This document shows, one piece after another, positions 36,111 through 53,158 of a stretch of DNA of 64,000 nt. Origin of the DNA: Chloroflexota bacterium (lineage in GTDB: Bacteria; Chloroflexota; Limnocylindria; Limnocylindrales; CSP1-4). Made by a program: the position numbers and the translations under genes. The stretch's first letter is position 1. Every line of letters starts with the position of its first letter. Where the stretch lies: NCBI GenBank assembly GCA_004297395.1, contig SCUO01000047.1:56575-120574 (forward strand), written 5' to 3'. The notes beneath the pieces are model-generated. The model was not told the origin of the DNA. It ran no database searches and was given only the letters and a program-made list of their open reading frames with translations.

Positions 36111-38693
36111 TCAGACGGGTTCCTTGGCCAGGTGACGCTGCATCGCGGCCTTGCGCGACAGGTTGACCCGGCCCTGGCGGTCGATCTCGACGACCACGAC
36201 CATGACCTCGTCGCCGACGGACACGACGTCCTCGACGCTCGGCACGTGGTAGTCGGCGAGCTCGCCGATCCGGACGAGGCCCTCCTTGCCGGGCAGGATC
36301 TCGACGAACGCGCCGAAGCCCATGATCCGGGTGACCTTGCCGAGGTACAGGGCGCCGACCTCGACCTCGCGGGTCAGGCTCTCGATCCACTGGATCGCCT
36401 TGCGTGAGTTCTCGCCGCTCACCGCGGCGATCTCGACCGTCCCGTCGTCCTCGACGTTGATCTCGGTCTGGGTTTCCTCCTGGATCTTGCGGATCATGGA
36501 GCCGCCCTTGCCGATGATCTCGCGGATCTTCTCGGGGTTGATCTTGATGGTGATGATCCGCGGCGCGAAGTCGCTCATCGACTCGCGCGCCTGCGGCAGG
36601 ACCTCGGTCATCTTGTCGAGGATCTCGAGGCGGGCCGCCAGGGCCTGCTTCAGGCCGTCGCGAATGATCGCCTCGTTGATGCCCTTGACCTTGATGTCCA
36701 TCTGGAGGGCGGTGATGCCGTCCCTCGTCCCGGTGACCTTGAAGTCCATGTCCCCGACCGCGTCCTCCTTGCCGAGGATGTCGGTCAGGACGACGAAGCG
36801 GCCGTCGGGCTCACTGATGAGGCCCATCGCCGCGCCGGCGACGGGCGCCGAGATCGGCACGCCGGCGTCCATGAGGGCGAGCGTCGAGCCGCAGGTCGAG
36901 GCCATCGAGGTCGAACCGTTGGACGACAGGCACTCGGACACGAGCCGGATGACGTACGGGAAGTCCTCGTTCGTCGGCAGGACGGGGATGAGCGCCCGCT
37001 CGGCCAGGTTGCCGTGGCCGATGTCGCGCCGGCTGGGGCCGCGCATCGGCTTGTTCTCGCCGGTCGAATAGGGCGGGAAGTTGTAGTGGTGGATGTAGCG
37101 CTTCTCGGTCTTGGGGCTGATCGTGTCGATCCGCTGGACGTCCGAGGACGCGCCGAGGGTCGCGATCGTCAGGACCTGGGTCTCGCCCCGGGTGAAGAGC
37201 CCCGAGCCGTGGGCTCGCGGCAGCAGCCCGACGTCGACCGAGATCTGGCGGAGCTCGGTCAGGCCGCGGCCGTCCATCCGGATGCCGTCCTCGAGGGCGA
37301 CCTTGCGGGCCGTCTTCTTGTGGACCAGGTTGAAGAGGCCCTTGCTGACGCGAGCGTCGCGGCGGGCCGCCTCCTGGATGGCCTTGCTGTCGCCGCCCGA
37401 GCGGGTTGCCCGGATGGCGTTCGCGATGCCCTCGCGGAGGGCGTTGATCCGGCCGGGCAGGTCGTTGCCGAACCAGATCAGGAGGTTGGCGGTGGCCTCG
37501 GCGTCCGGCAGGGCCCGATGGGCCTGGGCCAGCTCGATGCCGAAGAAGTTGGACAGGGTCGGGAGCTTGTAGTTCTCGAGGTCCGGGTAGCCCTCGCGGG
37601 CGATCGGCAGGGTGTCGAGGTAGCGGCCGGCCTCGAAGTGGGTGCCGTCGGCGAGGGCGGCCTCGAGGAACGCCAGGTCGAAGCCCACCGAGTGGCCGAC
37701 GACGACGGAGTTGCCGATGAACTTGAGGGCCTGGGCGGCGGCCTCGGCCGGCTTCGGCGCCTTCTTGACGTCGGCATCGGTGATGCCGTGCATCTGCTTG
37801 CCGACGATCGGGCGGCCGGGGTTGACGAGGGTCGACCAGCGGTCGGTGATCTTGCCCTTCTTGACCTTGACCGCGGCGATCTCGACGAGATCGGCCAGCT
37901 TGGGATCCGTGCCGGTCGTCTCGACGTCGACGACGACGAGCTCGTCACCCCGCCCGACGGCGTCGACGAACTCGAGGACCGAGCCGGTGCCGGGCTCGAG
38001 GAACGGCGTGCTCTTTGGCTTGCCGACCGCCTCGCGCAGCTGCTCCTGGATGTCGATGAGCGGCTGGAGGGCTCGATGGCCGAAGAGGATGGCCTCGGCC
38101 ATGACGTCTTCGGGCAGGAGCTTCGCGCCGGCCTCGACCATCATGATCGCGTCGCGGGTGCCTGAGACGATGAGGTCGAGCTCCGAATCGGCGAGCTGGC
38201 TGTAGGTCGGGTTGACCACGAACTCGCCGTCGATCCGGCCGACCCGGACCGCACCAACGGGCCCGGCGAACGGGATCTCGCTGATGGTGAGGGCGGCCGA
38301 CGCGGCGACGGTGCCGAGGACGTCGGGCTCGTTCTCCTGGTCGGTCGAGAGGACCGTGATGACGAGCTGGATGTCGTCCTTGTAGCCCTCGGGGAAGAGC
38401 GGCCGGATGGGCCGATCCGTGAGGCGGGCGGCCAGGGTTGCCGCCTCGGACGCGCGGGCCTCGCGCTTGATGAAGCCGCCCGGGATCTTGCCCGCGGCGT
38501 ACATCCGCTCCTCGAACTCGACGGTGAGCGGGAAGAAGTCGAGTCCCGGCCGCGGATCGGACCGGTTGGCGGTGCCGAGGACCAGGGTGTCACCGTAGCG
38601 AACGGTGACTGCGCCGCCGGCGAGACGGGCGAGCTTGCCGGTCTCGATGGTCAGGGTACGACCGCCGAACTCGGTCTCGAAGATGGTGGACAC
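36111..38693 (-). CDS. pnp: Polyribonucleotide nucleotidyltransferase (PNPase) with embedded DnaQ-like DEDDh 3'-5' exonuclease domain
   Basis: GTG start; PH1 (1-230), inserted exonuclease (about 250-412: VVDVETTG, GHSVGFDLAFL, HRALPDAEATANL), alpha-helical remnant, PH2 (GSGLFTRGETQ...), KH (IKINPEKIREIIGKGGSMIRKI), S1 (GKVTRIMGFGAFVEIL); 860 aa. Confidence 0.9.
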   Translation of the reverse strand: MSTIFETEFGGRTLTIETGKLARLAGGAVTVRYGDTLVLGTANRSDPRPGLDFFPLTVEFEERMYAAGKIPGGFIKREARASEAATLAARLTDRPIRPLFPEGYKDDIQLVITVLSTDQENEPDVLGTVAASAALTISEIPFAGPVGAVRVGRIDGEFVVNPTYSQLADSELDLIVSGTRDAIMMVEAGAKLLPEDVMAEAILFGHRALQPLIDIQEQLREAVGKPKSTPFLEPGTGSVLEFVDAVGRGDELVVVDVETTGTDPKLADLVEIAAVKVKKGKITDRWSTLVNPGRPIVGKQMHGITDADVKKAPKPAEAAAQALKFIGNSVVVGHSVGFDLAFLEAALADGTHFEAGRYLDTLPIAREGYPDLENYKLPTLSNFFGIELAQAHRALPDAEATANLLIWFGNDLPGRINALREGIANAIRATRSGGDSKAIQEAARRDARVSKGLFNLVHKKTARKVALEDGIRMDGRGLTELRQISVDVGLLPRAHGSGLFTRGETQVLTIATLGASSDVQRIDTISPKTEKRYIHHYNFPPYSTGENKPMRGPSRRDIGHGNLAERALIPVLPTNEDFPYVIRLVSECLSSNGSTSMASTCGSTLALMDAGVPISAPVAGAAMGLISEPDGRFVVLTDILGKEDAVGDMDFKVTGTRDGITALQMDIKVKGINEAIIRDGLKQALAARLEILDKMTEVLPQARESMSDFAPRIITIKINPEKIREIIGKGGSMIRKIQEETQTEINVEDDGTVEIAAVSGENSRKAIQWIESLTREVEVGALYLGKVTRIMGFGAFVEILPGKEGLVRIGELADYHVPSVEDVVSVGDEVMVVVVEIDRQGRVNLSRKAAMQRHLAKEPV

Positions 38694-38811: not shown

Positions 38812-39114
38812 CTAGCGGCGGAGTCCGAGCCGTCCGATGACGGCGCGGTAGCGCGTGTTGTCCTTCTTCACGAGGTAAGCGAGAAGGCGACGGCGCTGGC
38901 CGACGAGCTTGAGGAGGCCGCGACGCGAATGGTTGTCCTTGGGGAAGCTCCGGAGATGCCCCGTCAGGTCCTTGATCCGCTCGGTGAGGAGCGCGACCTG
39001 GACTTCCGGTGAGCCGGTGTCGCCGTCCTTGACGGCAAACCCCGTGATGATCTCCTGCTTCTCTTCCCGCGCGAGCGGCACTCGGTCCTCCGACACGAAC
39101 GTGACTGTATGCAT
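38812..39114 (-). CDS. rpsO: 30S ribosomal protein S15
   Basis: [51 protein letters not shown]; ATG 39114 (alternative GTG 39096 would give 94 aa). Confidence 0.85.
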
Positions 39115-39126
39115 TTCCTTCAACTT

Positions 39127-39155
39127 TGACCGACGGATCCTAGCAGCCAATCGCG
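39127..39155 (-). promoter_or_regulatory. Putative rpsO promoter (TTGCCC-N17-TAGGAT on minus strand)
   Basis: In 78-nt ribF-rpsO gap. Confidence 0.25.
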
Positions 39156-39191
39156 GTTCGGGCAAACGCCGGGGCCTCTCCCAGCGTTCCC

Positions 39192-40013
39192 TCAGGCCCC
39201 AACCCGACCGCCATCCCTCGCGAACACCAGGCGCAGGCGCCCGTGGATCGGTGCTTCCGTGACCAGGGCCAGGTCGCCGTCCGCTCCGATGACGGCCGTC
39301 GCAGTCAGCGCGCCGGTGGCCCCCTGCCCCTCCACGGTGGCCGGGTATTCCCCGGCGGGCGGGAGCGCTACTGGCATCGGCGCGACGAGGCGGGCGCGGC
39401 CGTCGGGGGCAGGGCTCCCCTCCCCCACGATCGCGTACGGACGACCGAGCAGCCTCGCTGCCCCGGCCAGGTCGCCCGCTGCGATGTCCGAGCGGATCTC
39501 GCCGCTCCGGACGGGCCGGCCGTCGAGATCGAGGCTCGGGATGATCGCGACGTCGTAGCCCATCGTGGCCCCGAGCGCGGCCACGGCCTCCGGGGTTCCG
39601 CGCCGATCGTGGCCGAAGGCCGATTCGGGGGTCATCAGGAAACCCGCGAGCGCCGTCCGGGCAGCGATCCGGCCGATGAAGTCCTCGAACTCGGTCATCC
39701 GGAGGGCGACGTCGAAGTGTTGGACGATGGTGACCTCGACGCCGGCTGCGGCAAGTCGCTCGAGGCGCTCGTCGGGGTCGCACAGCAGCGGCGGGGCGGC
39801 GCCGGTGAGGATCTCGTCGGGGTGGTGATCGAAGGTGATGACCGTCGGCCGAGCCGATCGGCGAGCCGCCTCGGAAACGAGGTGCTCGAGCAGGTAGGCG
39901 TGGCCGAGATGGAGGCCATCGAAGACGCCGACGACCACGAACAGTCGCCCGTGCTCGGCGCCGAGGGCGTCGATCCCTGCCACGACCGCCATCTCGCGCG
40001 CTGCGTCAGGCAT
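39192..40013 (-). CDS. ribF: FAD synthetase (RibF) with apparently degenerate C-terminal riboflavin-kinase domain
   Basis: FMN adenylyltransferase motifs [24 protein letters not shown]; ATG 40013 overlaps truB stop by 8 nt; C-terminal domain lacks the GFPTAN-type flap motif. Confidence 0.75.
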
Positions 40014-44976: not shown

Positions 44977-46452
44977 CTACGACGCCACCTCTTCGGTGGC
45001 CGCCTTCCTGGCGCGGGTTCGGGGCTTGGCAGCGGTTGCCGGCTCCGGCTCCGAGGCCACTTGCTCGGCGGCGGGCTCGTTGGCGGCCGCCGCCTTGGCC
45101 GTGGTGGCCTTCGCCTTGGTGGCCTTGGCTGCCTTCGTGGTCGGCTTGGCCTTCGACGTCGTCGCCGCCGTGGCGACGGGCTCACCGGCCTCCACGATCG
45201 CGGCCTCGGCCACCCCGTTCGTGGGTTCCGCGGCGGCCTTCTGCGGCCGGGCCCTCGGCTTCTTCTCGACAACGGTCTCGGCGGCGGCCTCGGCCGTCTC
45301 GGCGGTTGCGGCGAGCGGCTCGGCGGCGGCCTCGGCGGGCGTCAGGCCGGCGTCGGGGGCCGTCGTGGCGATCTCCGGGGCGACCGACGGCCCCGCGGCC
45401 TCGGCCGCCTTCGCCTCGGCGACCGAGACGTCGCTCCGAATGTCGATCCGCCAACCGGTCAGCCGGGCGGCAAGCCGGGCGTTCTGACCCTCACGACCGA
45501 TCGCCAGCGAGAGCATCCGCTCGGGCACGGTGACGTTCGCGATCCGATGTTCGATGTCGATGTCGACCGACAGGACCTGGGCCGGCGAGAGGGCGTTGGC
45601 CACGAACTGGGCCGGATCGTCATTCCAGGGGATGACGTCGATCTTCTCGCCGCCGAGCTCGGCGACGACGGCCTGGACCCGGGCGCCACGCTGGCCGACC
45701 GTCGCGCCGACGGGATCGAGGCCCTCCTGGCGCGATGAGACGGCGACCTTGCTGCGGCTGCCGGCCTCGCGGGCAATGGCCCGGATCTCGACCGTGCCGT
45801 TGTGGATCTCGGGGACCTCGAGCTCGAAGAGCCGCTTCAGGAAGCCCTTGTGGGTCCGGCTGACCATGAGCATGGGGCCCTTGGGTCCGCGGCGGACCTC
45901 CAGGACGAAGGCCTTGACGTTCTGGCCGATGCGGTAGTGCTCGAGGGGCGATTGCTCGGTCGTGGCCAGGATGGCTTCGACGCCCTTGCCGACGTCCAGG
46001 ATGATCGCGCGCGGCTCGGCCCGGTTCACGGTGCCGGTGATGAGCTCGCCCTCGCGGCTCGCGAACTGGTCGTAGACGACGTCGCGCTCGGCTTCGCGGA
46101 GGCGCTGCAGGACGACCTGCTTGGCCGTCTGGGCCCCGATCCGGCCGAACGATTCGCCGTCGAGCTGCTCCATCTCGACGAGCTCGCCGGGGACGGCGTC
46201 GGCCTTGTGGCCGCGAGCCTCGTCGAGGGTGAACTCGGTCAGCGGGTCCTCGACCTCGGAGACGGCGACGCGGGCCCGGAAGACGCGGATCTTGCCGCTC
46301 TCACCGTCGATTCGGACGTAGATGTCCTCTTCGTTCGCGATCCGGCGGTAGGCGGCCTGAATCGCCTCCTCCACCGTCCGGATGAGCTGCTCTCGGGGAA
46401 CCTGCTTCTCGGCGTTGAGCTGGAGGAGGGCGCCGACGAAATCTCGACTCAT
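44977..46452 (-). CDS. nusA: Transcription termination/antitermination factor NusA with Ala/Lys/Thr/Pro-rich C-terminal tail
   Basis: NTD, S1, KH1/KH2 (LAIGREGQNARLAARLTGWRIDIRS); start at ATG 46452 preceded by GGAGGG (the upstream in-frame ATG lies inside the SD). Confidence 0.9.
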   Translation of the reverse strand: MSRDFVGALLQLNAEKQVPREQLIRTVEEAIQAAYRRIANEEDIYVRIDGESGKIRVFRARVAVSEVEDPLTEFTLDEARGHKADAVPGELVEMEQLDGESFGRIGAQTAKQVVLQRLREAERDVVYDQFASREGELITGTVNRAEPRAIILDVGKGVEAILATTEQSPLEHYRIGQNVKAFVLEVRRGPKGPMLMVSRTHKGFLKRLFELEVPEIHNGTVEIRAIAREAGSRSKVAVSSRQEGLDPVGATVGQRGARVQAVVAELGGEKIDVIPWNDDPAQFVANALSPAQVLSVDIDIEHRIANVTVPERMLSLAIGREGQNARLAARLTGWRIDIRSDVSVAEAKAAEAAGPSVAPEIATTAPDAGLTPAEAAAEPLAATAETAEAAAETVVEKKPRARPQKAAAEPTNGVAEAAIVEAGEPVATAATTSKAKPTTKAAKATKAKATTAKAAAANEPAAEQVASEPEPATAAKPRTRARKAATEEVAS

Positions 46453-46500
46453 GGTCGCTTCGCCCTCCAATCATCATCGTTCTGTTTCCGAGCCCCGCCG

Positions 46501-46527
46501 AAAAAAATACGTGGGGGTCACCCACGT
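46501..46527 (-). terminator. Intrinsic terminator: 7-bp stem ACGUGGG/CCCACGU, 5-nt loop, followed by U7 tract
   Basis: Plus strand AAAAAAA (46501-46507) TACGTGGGGGTCACCCACGT; lies downstream of ispG and 48 nt upstream of nusA start. Confidence 0.6.
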
Positions 46528-46557
46528 CCACGAGGCGGCCGTTTCGATTCGCCGCGG

Positions 46558-46563
46558 AGTATA
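46558..46563 (-). promoter_or_regulatory. TATACT -10-like element between ispG stop and the terminator (candidate nusA promoter feeding a leader attenuator)
   Basis: Plus AGTATA 46558-46563; followed on minus strand by CCGCGG discriminator-like GC block. Confidence 0.3.
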
Positions 46564-46586
46564 CACCCGGGTGGGTGGATCGTCGA

Positions 46587-47843
46587 TCAGCGATCAGGCG
46601 GACCGGGCCGCTCCAATGACGGGTAGCGGCGCTCGATGTAGGCCTCGAGGATCTCGATGAACTCGTCGACGAGGCCCTCGCCGCGGAGTGTCCGATCGAG
46701 CTTGCCGTCCACGAACACCGGCGCGACCGGGTCCTCGAACGTGCCGGGCAGGCTGATCCCGATGTTGGCGTGCTTCGATTCACCCGGGCCGTTGACCACG
46801 CAGCCCATGACCGCGACGGTCAGCTCCTCGACGCCAGGGTGCGTCTCCCGCCACTCCGGCATCCGGTCCCGCAGGTGAATCTGGATCCGCTCGGCCATCT
46901 CCTGGAAGAAGGTCGAGGTCGTCCGGCCGCAGCCGGGACAGGCGCTGACCTGGGGCAGGAACGAGCGGAGACCCATTGACTGCAGGACCTGCTGGGCGAC
47001 CCGGACCTCCTCCTCGCGTTCGCCGCCCGGTGCCGGGGTCAGCGAGACCCGGATGGTGTCGCCGATCCCCTCGTTCAGCAGGATCGCGAGGCCGGCCGTC
47101 GATGCCACGATGCCCTTCATCCCCAGCCCGGCCTCGGTAAGCCCCAGATGGAGCGGGTAGTCCGAGCGACCGGCCAGGAGCCGGTAGACGTCGACCAGGT
47201 CGCGAACGTTGGAGACCTTGGCCGACAGGATGATCCGGTCGTGGCGAAGGCCCGTCGCCTCGGCCAGCTCGGCCGAGCGCATCGCCGACTCGATCATCGC
47301 CTCGATCATCACGTCCCGGGCGTCACGGGGCGCGGCGGCCCGGGCGTTGGCGTCCATGAGCTCGGTCAGGAGGGCCTGGTCGAGGGATCCCCAGTTGACC
47401 CCGATCCGGACCGGCTTGTCGTGCTCGATGGCGACTCGGACGATGGTCTGGAAGTTCTCGTCGTGGCGCTTGCCGCCGACGTTGCCGGGGTTGATCCGGT
47501 ACTTCGCGAGCCCCGCGGCCGCGGCCGGGTGCTCCACCAGGAGCTGGTGGCCGTTGTAGTGGAAGTCGCCGATGACCGGGACCGAGACGCCCAGGTCGGC
47601 CAGCTTCCGGAGCACCTCGGGCACGGCGGCCGCCGCGGCATCCGTGTTGACCGTCACCCGAACGAGCTGGCTGCCTGCGTGTGCCAGGCGCGCGACCTGG
47701 ATGGCGGTGGCGTCGGGGTCGGCGGTGTCCGTGTTCGTCATCGACTGGACGACGACCGGATGGGCGCCCCCGACGAGGACGCCGCCGACGTCGACGGACA
47801 CGGTCGCCCGGCGCCGGGGGCGAAGGGATTCGGCGCCGGCCAC
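46587..47843 (-). CDS. ispG: 4-hydroxy-3-methylbut-2-enyl diphosphate synthase (IspG/GcpE)
   Basis: [12 protein letters not shown], Cys ligands CPGCGRT ... [11 protein letters not shown]; GTG 47843 two nt after rseP stop; N-terminus aligns with mycobacterial GcpE. Confidence 0.9.
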
Positions 47844-52404: not shown

Positions 52405-53158
52405 GCCCGCACGCTCTCCGCCCCGGCCGCCGTGATCAGGGTGCCGACCGGCTCGCCCCTCGCGACCCGGGCGATGTTGTCGGCCTGGTTGAGGTCGAAG
52501 ACGACGATCGGGAGGTCGTTCTCCATGCACAGCGAGACCGCCGCTGCATCCATGACCCGGAGCTGGTCGCGGAGGAGGTCGGCGTACTCGAGGTGGTCGT
52601 AGCGTCGGGCGGTCGGGACGGTCATCGGGTCCGCATCGTAGACCCCGTCGACCTTGGTCGCCTTGAGCAGCACCGACGCGCCGATCTCGACCGCTCGCAG
52701 CGCAGCGGCAGTATCGGTCGTGAAGTAGGGGTTGCCGGTGCCGGCCACGAAGATCACGACCCGGCCCTTCTCGAGGTGCCGGACCGCCCGCCGCCGGATG
52801 TAGGGCTCGGCGATCTCGTTCATCGCGATCGCGCTCATGACCCGGACCGGGATCCCCACCCGCTCGATGGCGTCCTGGAGGGCCAGGCCGTTCATGACCG
52901 TGGCGAGCATGCCGATATAGTCGCCGGTCGCCCGATCCATGCCCCTGGCCGACGCCGCGAGGCCCCGGAAGATGTTGCCGCCGCCGACCACGATCCCGAC
53001 CTCCACGCCCGAGGCGTGGACGGTCCCGACCTGGCGGGCGATGAAGGTGCAGAACTCGGGGTCGACGCCGTACGTCCGGTTGCCCAGCAGGGCCTCACCC
53101 GAGAGCTTGAGCAGGATCCGTTCGAAGCGCGGTCGCGCCGGAACGGATGCGGCGTCGG

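Follow-up and report, generated by a model that had tools for sequence, protein, structure and literature searches.

The region between ispG and nusA

In the locus described here, an intrinsic terminator stands directly in front of nusA, and the question arises whether this element is a regulated attenuator of the nusA operon or the plain terminator of the ispG operon located upstream. The window, by which we mean the whole stretch of DNA that was analysed, is 64 kb long with a GC content of 71.9%. The reading that we favour is that of a rimP-leader-type attenuator placed directly before nusA, with NusA as its most likely effector (probability about 0.68).

Inspection of the 134-nt gap between ispG and nusA confirmed each of the features that an earlier note on this DNA had described there, all on the minus strand. 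In the direction of transcription, the elements follow each other in the order promoter (TCGACG-17-TATACT), hairpin, A+U7, 48 nt containing GGAGGG, and the nusA ATG:

46589..46587, minus strand: stop codon TGA of ispG (direct reading of the sequence)
46586..46581, minus strand: -35-like element TCGACG, directly 3' of the ispG stop, separated from the -10 by a 17-nt spacer
46563..46558, minus strand: -10 element TATACT, preceded by GGTG (46567..46564)
46552..46528, minus strand: short 5' leader, composed of the A-rich GAAUCGAAAC (46550..46541), GGCCGCC (46540..46534) and the spacer UCGUGG
46527..46509, minus strand: hairpin ACGUGGG-UGACC-CCCACGU, 7 bp of which 5 are G-C, loop of 5 nt, about -10 to -11 kcal/mol
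46527..46521 and 46515..46509, minus strand: stem arms ACGTGGG and CCCACGT, on either side of the loop TGACC (46520..46516)
46508 and 46507..46501, minus strand: terminator tail, A followed by T7 (direct reading)
46500..46493, minus strand: CGGCGGGG, predicted 3' strand of the helix P1, pairing with GGCCGCC (46540..46534) in the read-through RNA
46468..46463, minus strand: Shine-Dalgarno sequence GGAGGG of nusA, within the 48-nt stretch 46500..46453
46452..46450, minus strand: start codon ATG of nusA (direct reading of the sequence)
44977..46452, minus strand: nusA, 491 aa, with NusA_N, S1 and KH domains (Pfam) followed by a low-complexity C-terminal tail

Pfam scans of the window identified GcpE (IspG) upstream of the gap, and NusA_N/S1/KH_5, YlxR, IF-2, RBFA and DHH downstream of it. 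On the basis of Pfam and open reading frames, nusA is the first gene of the minus-strand series nusA-ylxR-infB-rbfA-DHH. This series belongs to a long cluster of translation and RNA genes on the same strand, in which Pfam recognised khpA, rimM, yraN, frr, uppS, cdsA, dxr, rseP and ispG ahead of the gap, and nusA, ylxR, infB, rbfA, DHH, truB, rpsO and pnp after it; trmD, rplS, rnhB, rpsB, tsf and pyrH were assigned to the cluster by ORF position and N-terminal sequence only.

The absence of rimP from the locus, also noticed earlier, was borne out. No RimP was present among the small plausible ORFs of the window or among the genes that separate ispG from nusA in some relatives, and the NusA N-terminus begins directly with NusA_N in the Pfam match, i.e. 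there is no rimP fusion. Furthermore, rimP was absent between the leader and nusA in all of the approximately 190 loci that were informative on this point.

The window contains no tRNA or tmRNA gene, and thus no metY-like gene upstream of nusA, and no Rfam family reached its gathering threshold in it. When the search was relaxed to E≤10, only RAGATH-28 (16.6 bits for a gathering threshold of 45.3, E 0.88) and Atu_C3 were returned, and both were taken as chance matches. The weak RAGATH-28 match covers 46457-46527 on the minus strand, from the hairpin to the GGAGGGCGAAGC region.

Conservation of the leader in relatives

A generic terminator scan of the 44-49 kb region returned 2 sites for 1.1 expected, a count that is uninformative when taken alone, and the remaining terminator-like sites across the window were at chance level. 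The T7 tract is nevertheless the only run of at least 5 T or A, on both strands, in the 64 kb. In order to establish how far the leader is conserved, a comparison suggested by the earlier note, one genome per species was scanned with NusA. This gave 80 loci (81 with the window), nearly all titled as Chloroflexota, Limnocylindrales or Limnocylindria MAGs, whose NusA N-terminal regions were 67-97% identical to that of the window.

The same hairpin and T-tract were found 38-79 nt upstream of nusA (from stem to ATG) in 80 of the 81 loci, these being counted, here and in the P1 statistics below, as they stand and not as phylogenetically independent cases; the exception has just 25 nt of upstream DNA. 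The 17-mer core CGTGGGTGACCCCCACG was exactly retained in 75 of 80 loci, as a single copy per locus that was always ahead of nusA. The 4-fold degenerate sites of the first 120 nusA codons served as a yardstick: their mean pairwise identity was 0.59 and none of the 24 columns was invariant, whereas the hairpin core was identical in 57 of the 61 loci used for this comparison. On this evidence the hairpin is not a product of chance, and conservation is what decides the point.

The conserved part extends beyond the hairpin. Between the -10 element and the hairpin, a segment of 27-35 nt consists of a short GC-rich stretch, an A-rich GAAYNGAAY segment and an invariant GGCCGC. On the other side, the hairpin is followed in relatives by 7-9 U, 22-70 variable nt, GGAGG, and ATG or GTG. 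Closer relatives also keep a block GGAGGGCGA(A/U)GCGACC ahead of the nusA ATG.

The association of the element with nusA was examined in two sets of sequences. A regular-expression search for GUGGG...CCCAC with a T-rich tail in the 922 kb of related loci returned nusA leaders only (79/79). In the same 922 kb, 67 of the 69 runs of at least 6 T, on either strand, corresponded to the U-tract of a nusA leader. Practically the only canonical hairpin and U-tract terminator in nearly 1 Mb of 70%-GC sequence is thus the one in front of nusA, which argues for a specific regulatory interaction, rather than a generic stop signal, as the reason for its retention. Canonical U-tract terminators being almost absent from the clade, other genes must terminate by different signals.

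In addition, metagenome contigs were scanned with GTGGGTGACCCCCACNNNTTTT, and at least 120 stretches with hairpin and T-tract were obtained. Among the matches listed, nusA lay 58-129 nt downstream in all 113 informative cases, 7 being too short to tell; no hairpin in a context other than nusA was seen among these 113. Some of the metagenome lineages possess a NusA whose N-terminus is only 40-49% identical to that of the window, with the hairpin kept. A distant lineage of 62% GC retains the order uppS-cdsA-dxr-rseP-ispG, then nusA-ylxR-infB-rbfA. In a second one, ruvC-ruvA are located upstream of the module, and in a third one the upstream gene is divergent and the promoter is close to consensus (TTGTGA-17-TGcTATAAT).

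A sub-lineage sequence, CGGGTGACCGAACC, was observed just past the U-tract in loci L007, L012, L014 and L022, and also in L008. It repeats GGGTGACC of the hairpin top, and a loop-loop interaction or an alternative pairing of this repeat is possible in these five loci.

A predicted promoter ahead of the hairpin

In a promoter scan, TCGACG-17-TATACT matched the consensus at 9 of 12 positions, 1 such site being found for 0.1 expected. The anchored comparison of relatives showed TTCGAC or TTTGAG at the -35 position, then a spacer of 17-18 nt and GGTG-TATACT. The -10 hexamer was present in all 80 loci (as TATAGT in 5 of these), 27-35 nt upstream of the hairpin core, and GGTGTATACT, which covers the -10 region, was found in 44 of the 61 tabulated loci. 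From the position of the -10 element, transcription would start near 46551.

When the 80 loci were compared, no conserved promoter was found between the U-tract and the Shine-Dalgarno sequence, a stretch that varies in both length and sequence. These results agree with the proposal of the earlier note that the promoter lies upstream of the hairpin and that no room is left for one downstream. A promoter overlapping the terminator, with TATTTT as its -10, was also considered and rejected: its -35 is poor, and many relatives have GTTTTTTTT instead.

In the scanned part of the window (1-60000), the only other sigma70-like match was ATGACC-16-TATAGT (52894-52921, plus strand), which falls within the pyrH/tsf region or antisense to it. 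As a further observation, the A-rich segment of the leader, GAAUCGAAAC or GAACUGAAC, loosely resembles the M. tuberculosis boxC RNA bound by the NusA KH domains; in the portion of the boxC literature available, AUA and AUU are described as important for this binding.

RNA structure of the leader

The upper stem and the loop are invariant and therefore uninformative on pairing. The lower stem varies. The first pair outside GUGGG/CCCAC, otherwise C-G, is replaced by A-U in the two lineages that are most distant, the second is A-U or G.U, and the third is G-C, G.U, U-A or A-U. Such G.U pairs and double changes point to an RNA helix and not to a DNA operator. Upon folding of the terminated-length RNAs, the median pair probability of the hairpin was 0.997, and it exceeded 0.9 in 79 of 83 non-redundant leaders.

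The leader ahead of the hairpin is only about 25 nt long. No conserved competing pairing or antiterminator was found when the 83 non-redundant leaders were folded and the relatives aligned. Two candidates visible in the window were discarded. An antiterminator formed by CGUGG/CCACG is possible in some of the loci only, and its pairing would in any case lie ahead of the U-tract. The 5'-proximal hairpin GCGGC...GCCGC, predicted for the window leader, lacks conservation among relatives.

A second helix is predicted in the read-through RNA. The GGCCGC sequence, invariant or nearly so among relatives, is contained in GGCCGCC, the 5' strand of the predicted helix P1, which brackets the terminator. 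GGCCGC(C/U) is complementary to the sequence following the U-tract, which reads CGGCGGC, GGGCGGCC, GAGCGGCC or CGGACCGGC. The alignment past the U-tract being out of register for column-based covariation, P1 was judged by duplex energies and MFE structures. The cognate duplexes had a median energy of -11.7 kcal/mol, whereas random 12-mers drawn from these loci gave -6.6 and segments further along the leader gave -5.6. P1 was part of the MFE fold in 77 of 82 non-redundant read-through leaders, the hairpin being retained in all 82. Strand variants of P1 were observed, GGCCGCUC/GAGCGGCC vs GCCGCC/GGCGGC, and the change between GCCGCC/GGCGGC and GCCGCUC/GAGCGGC looks compensatory in the sequences compared. 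Since P1 forms only after read-through, it cannot set termination; we take it as a predicted feature of the 5' end of the mature mRNA, perhaps involved in stability or processing.

Comparison with known attenuators

Naville and Gautheret (2010, Genome Biol 11:R97, PMC2965389) presented the rimP-leader, located upstream of rimP-nusA-infB, as more ubiquitous than any other transcription attenuator. The stem of this short terminator, GGGc...gCCC, is conserved to an unusual degree and leads into a U stretch. An antiterminator is lacking, the gene begins 4-130 nt away, and the motif is confined to this operon. NusA was proposed as its effector, and feedback by another product of the operon was also considered (PMC2965389). 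In the available portions of the supplementary data of that paper, the core GUGGG...CCCAC followed by U's occurs in Chlorobi, cyanobacteria, Clostridia, Delta- and Alphaproteobacteria, and others.

This core is the one found in the window, where the hairpin ACGUGGG-UGACC-CCCACGU followed by A+U7 has the same G-rich 5' arm and C-rich 3' arm; examples from those portions are AAAGUGGGGGAUCCCCACUUUUUU (Chlorobi) and GGAAGUGGGUUAAUGCCCACUUUUUUU (cyanobacteria), to be compared with ACGUGGGUGACCCCCACGUAUUUUUUU of the window. The other traits are also shared, namely the U stretch, the lack of an antiterminator, the distance to the start codon (48 nt) and the restriction to one operon. Furthermore, many of the published entries seen in the same portions appear to carry a -10-like hexamer some 20-40 nt upstream, as the window does. 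Differences were also noted. The first gene behind the rimP-leader is rimP, whereas the leader in the window precedes nusA-ylxR-infB-rbfA and its first gene is nusA. Moreover, the clade of the window is distinguished by the invariant loop UGACC and by the upstream GGCCGCC, with the predicted helix bracketing the terminator. When the supplements of PMC2965389 were searched by term, no Chloroflexi entry for this family was returned, and none occurs in parts 1-2 of the 4. The window element is best taken as a member of the rimP-leader attenuator family, in Chloroflexota and directly before nusA, a kinship that the earlier note does not mention.

The Rfam family RF01770, the rimP leader of Gammaproteobacteria, contains two hairpins, the second of which (CUGGGCU..GCCC+U7) is of the window type, and its operon context is alike. 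RF01770 did not match the window at gathering (47 bits) or at E≤10, whereas the E. coli leader used as a control scored 102 bits. As RF01770 is specific to Gammaproteobacteria, this non-match is silent on the broader family.

The statement of the earlier note that NusA-dependent termination in its own leader is known in Bacillus has a published basis: in the accessible text of PMC12288461, which cites Mondal 2016, NusA-stimulated termination in the NusA leader of B. subtilis is said to result in autoregulation. For the E. coli operon, autoregulation was reported by Plumbridge 1985 and Nakamura 1985, as cited in the available text of PMC2965389. In both organisms the leader terminator is the point at which NusA limits its own gene, and in the window a leader terminator likewise stands ahead of nusA. 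A leader of this type has its promoter upstream of the terminator, so that transcription of the operon must read through it; for the window, this arrangement is predicted from sequence and conservation. However, the B. subtilis operon starts with rimP (ylxS) and that of E. coli with metY, neither of which is present at the window locus. NusA dependence is experimental in B. subtilis and E. coli, whereas for the window it would be deduced, and the uninterrupted U7 looks intrinsically strong. A looser parallel is offered by greA, another transcription-factor gene with a leader terminator, which according to the available part of PMC6829880 yields the short GraL RNAs and is linked to autoregulation; both the sequence and the factor are unrelated, and this is an analogy only.

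One of the most widespread bacterial attenuators is thereby extended to uncultured Chloroflexota of the Limnocylindria type. Where the locus lacks rimP, the element is still attached to nusA, which indicates that it belongs to nusA rather than to rimP. For the conservation of the GGG/CCC stem, noted in 2010, the parts of the literature examined contain no explanation, and the present clade supplies an unusually invariant and context-free example for this question. The element is of interest because it is so extremely conserved, because the clade has hardly any other U-tract terminators, and because of the bracket helix. In terms of annotation, a 5' leader/attenuator feature belongs before nusA in the genomes of this clade.

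Proposed mechanism and alternative explanations

We infer the start site, the actual termination, NusA as the effector and the role of P1, and propose the following scheme. A sigma70-type promoter, TCGACG-17-TATACT, would start the transcript near 46551. Some 25 nt further on (about +25 to +50), the hairpin and A+U7 would form an intrinsic terminator at which most polymerases would stop, freeing a leader RNA of about 50 nt, and the fraction that reads through would transcribe nusA-ylxR-infB-rbfA. Transcription arriving from the ispG operon would meet the same terminator. Since there is no antiterminator fold, the extent of read-through must depend on a protein that targets either the elongation complex or the hairpin. 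NusA is the most likely effector: by analogy with the known systems, more free NusA would lead to more termination in its own leader, i.e. to negative feedback. The short and fixed distance between promoter and hairpin could make termination sensitive to the speed at which NusA loads onto the young elongation complex. In the read-through RNA, GGCCGCC would pair with GGCGG past the U-tract, so as to enclose the terminator at the 5' end of the mRNA, perhaps with an effect on stability or processing.

NusA-dependent terminators of B. subtilis tend to be weak. The hairpin with its perfect U7 looks strong and factor-independent, and NusA may add little here. In addition, the strict invariance of UGACC and GGCCGCC, which goes beyond what generic NusA action would need, hints at a sequence-specific partner. 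The attenuator could be the same and its effector different, another factor binding the hairpin and GGCCGCC in a sequence-specific manner. The candidates would be IF2, a YlxR/RnpM-like protein, RbfA, NusG, or a 30S or initiation component that reads the three loop-adjacent G-C pairs, like those of the initiator-tRNA anticodon stem. The loop UGACC and the stem core remain invariant even where N-terminal identity of NusA drops to 40-49%, several products of the operon bind RNA or the ribosome, and feedback by another of its products was, as mentioned above, envisaged by Naville and Gautheret (PMC2965389). The initiator tRNA of E. coli, encoded just upstream of the E. coli leader, also has GGG/CCC by its anticodon loop; this likeness, however, amounts to three G-C pairs. 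NusA-stimulated leader termination is the one mechanism with experimental backing, in another species, according to the accessible text of PMC12288461. We therefore regard a non-NusA effector as unlikely, NusA being retained.

A more far-reaching proposal is that GUGGG-UGACC-CCCAC and GGCCGCC form a protein-binding riboregulator common to the whole rimP-leader family, for instance a mimic of the initiator-tRNA anticodon stem that would be read by a component of initiation or 30S assembly. We consider this a long shot. If it were true, nusA-infB transcription would be coupled to initiation capacity, and P1 would give the read-through RNA of this clade a definite 5' end, either processed or stabilised. 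Being almost devoid of other U-tract terminators, the clade would then offer a clean system for finding the reader of the motif.

The hairpin might also be a plain terminator of the uppS-cdsA-dxr-rseP-ispG operon, nusA being transcribed from an unrecognised promoter downstream of or overlapping it. Its position is compatible with such a role: it lies 60 nt past the ispG stop without any other terminator in between, and would stop read-through from ispG. The loci in which the neighbourhood of nusA has changed speak against it. The distance between ispG and nusA in relatives is mostly about 110-430 nt and reaches about 5.9 kb in some, a few of the values being frame-error artefacts. The inserted genes encode a GH18 glycosidase, a GNAT acetyltransferase, an alpha/beta hydrolase, putative lipoproteins and a membrane protein, and are partly on the opposite strand. 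Even with 0.5-5.8 kb of such unrelated genes (GH18, GNAT, hydrolase, lipoproteins) between ispG and nusA, the module adjoins nusA, and it also persists with ruvA or a divergent gene upstream. As the module stays with nusA when the upstream gene differs or diverges, it is not simply an ispG terminator, and nusA transcription must cross it. This is what had been proposed from the window alone, and the attachment of the module to nusA whatever the upstream gene, as judged from these sequences, upholds it. In the loci with a divergent neighbour, the promoter of the module is the only source of nusA transcription that is visible in the sequence. The -10 upstream of the hairpin is conserved, and the 22-70 nt past the U-tract are unconserved and without a promoter-like element. 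An ispG terminator is thus a very improbable reading. In L051, about 230-550 nt past ispG, we observed a tandem repeat unit of which one frame reads RPLDDPAFQVTAGRPIRGQIGARS 3-4 times; it resembles repetitive intergenic DNA more than a gene.

Alternatively, the promoter and the terminator could constitute a tiny independent gene, whose RNA of about 50 nt would have a role of its own, such as sequestering NusA or some other RNA-binding protein in the manner of a decoy or sponge, and polymerases would reach nusA only incidentally. An efficient terminator would make the terminated RNA plentiful, GGCCGCC and the hairpin are far more conserved than termination needs, and the leader terminator of greA does generate the short GraL RNAs (available part of PMC6829880). 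However, every copy found in the loci compared lies 38-79 nt ahead of the nusA start, none turned up in another place, and nusA has no other conserved promoter, so that read-through is not incidental. A function in trans would add to attenuation and not replace it, and an independent small-RNA gene is accordingly given very little credence. Finally, it is scarcely credible that the inverted repeat CGTGGG-N5-CCCACG is a DNA operator on which a dimeric repressor would act as a roadblock at about +30: it is a perfect and invariant repeat of 6-7 bp just downstream of the promoter, but the T-tract is conserved on one side only, the stem changes preserve pairing in RNA, partly as G.U, which would be a mismatch in DNA, the loop is asymmetric, and the motif matches an RNA attenuator family across phyla.

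Other observations on the cluster

The C-terminal part of NusA in the window, residues ~345-491 (44977-45420, minus strand), forms a tail of about 145 aa in which Ala, Glu, Pro, Thr and Lys abound and no Pfam domain was recognised. In many relatives the tblastn match covered NusA residues 1-344 only, the tail thus being variable or absent.

Downstream in the same cluster, the 323-aa ORF at 38812-39783 (minus strand) has ribosomal protein S15 as its sole match, within its last 81 residues. The match being confined to these residues, the real rpsO is short and the ORF owes its spurious length to the high G+C content.

The PNPase gene (36111-38693, minus strand) encodes 860 aa with two RNase_PH, two RNase_PH_C, one KH and one S1 domain. 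PNPases normally carry an all-alpha linker domain at the position where, in the window protein, residues 253-405 match Pfam RNase_T (PF00929, a DEDD 3'-5' exonuclease) with an E value of 9.9e-29. The PNPase of the window may therefore contain an inserted second exonuclease domain.
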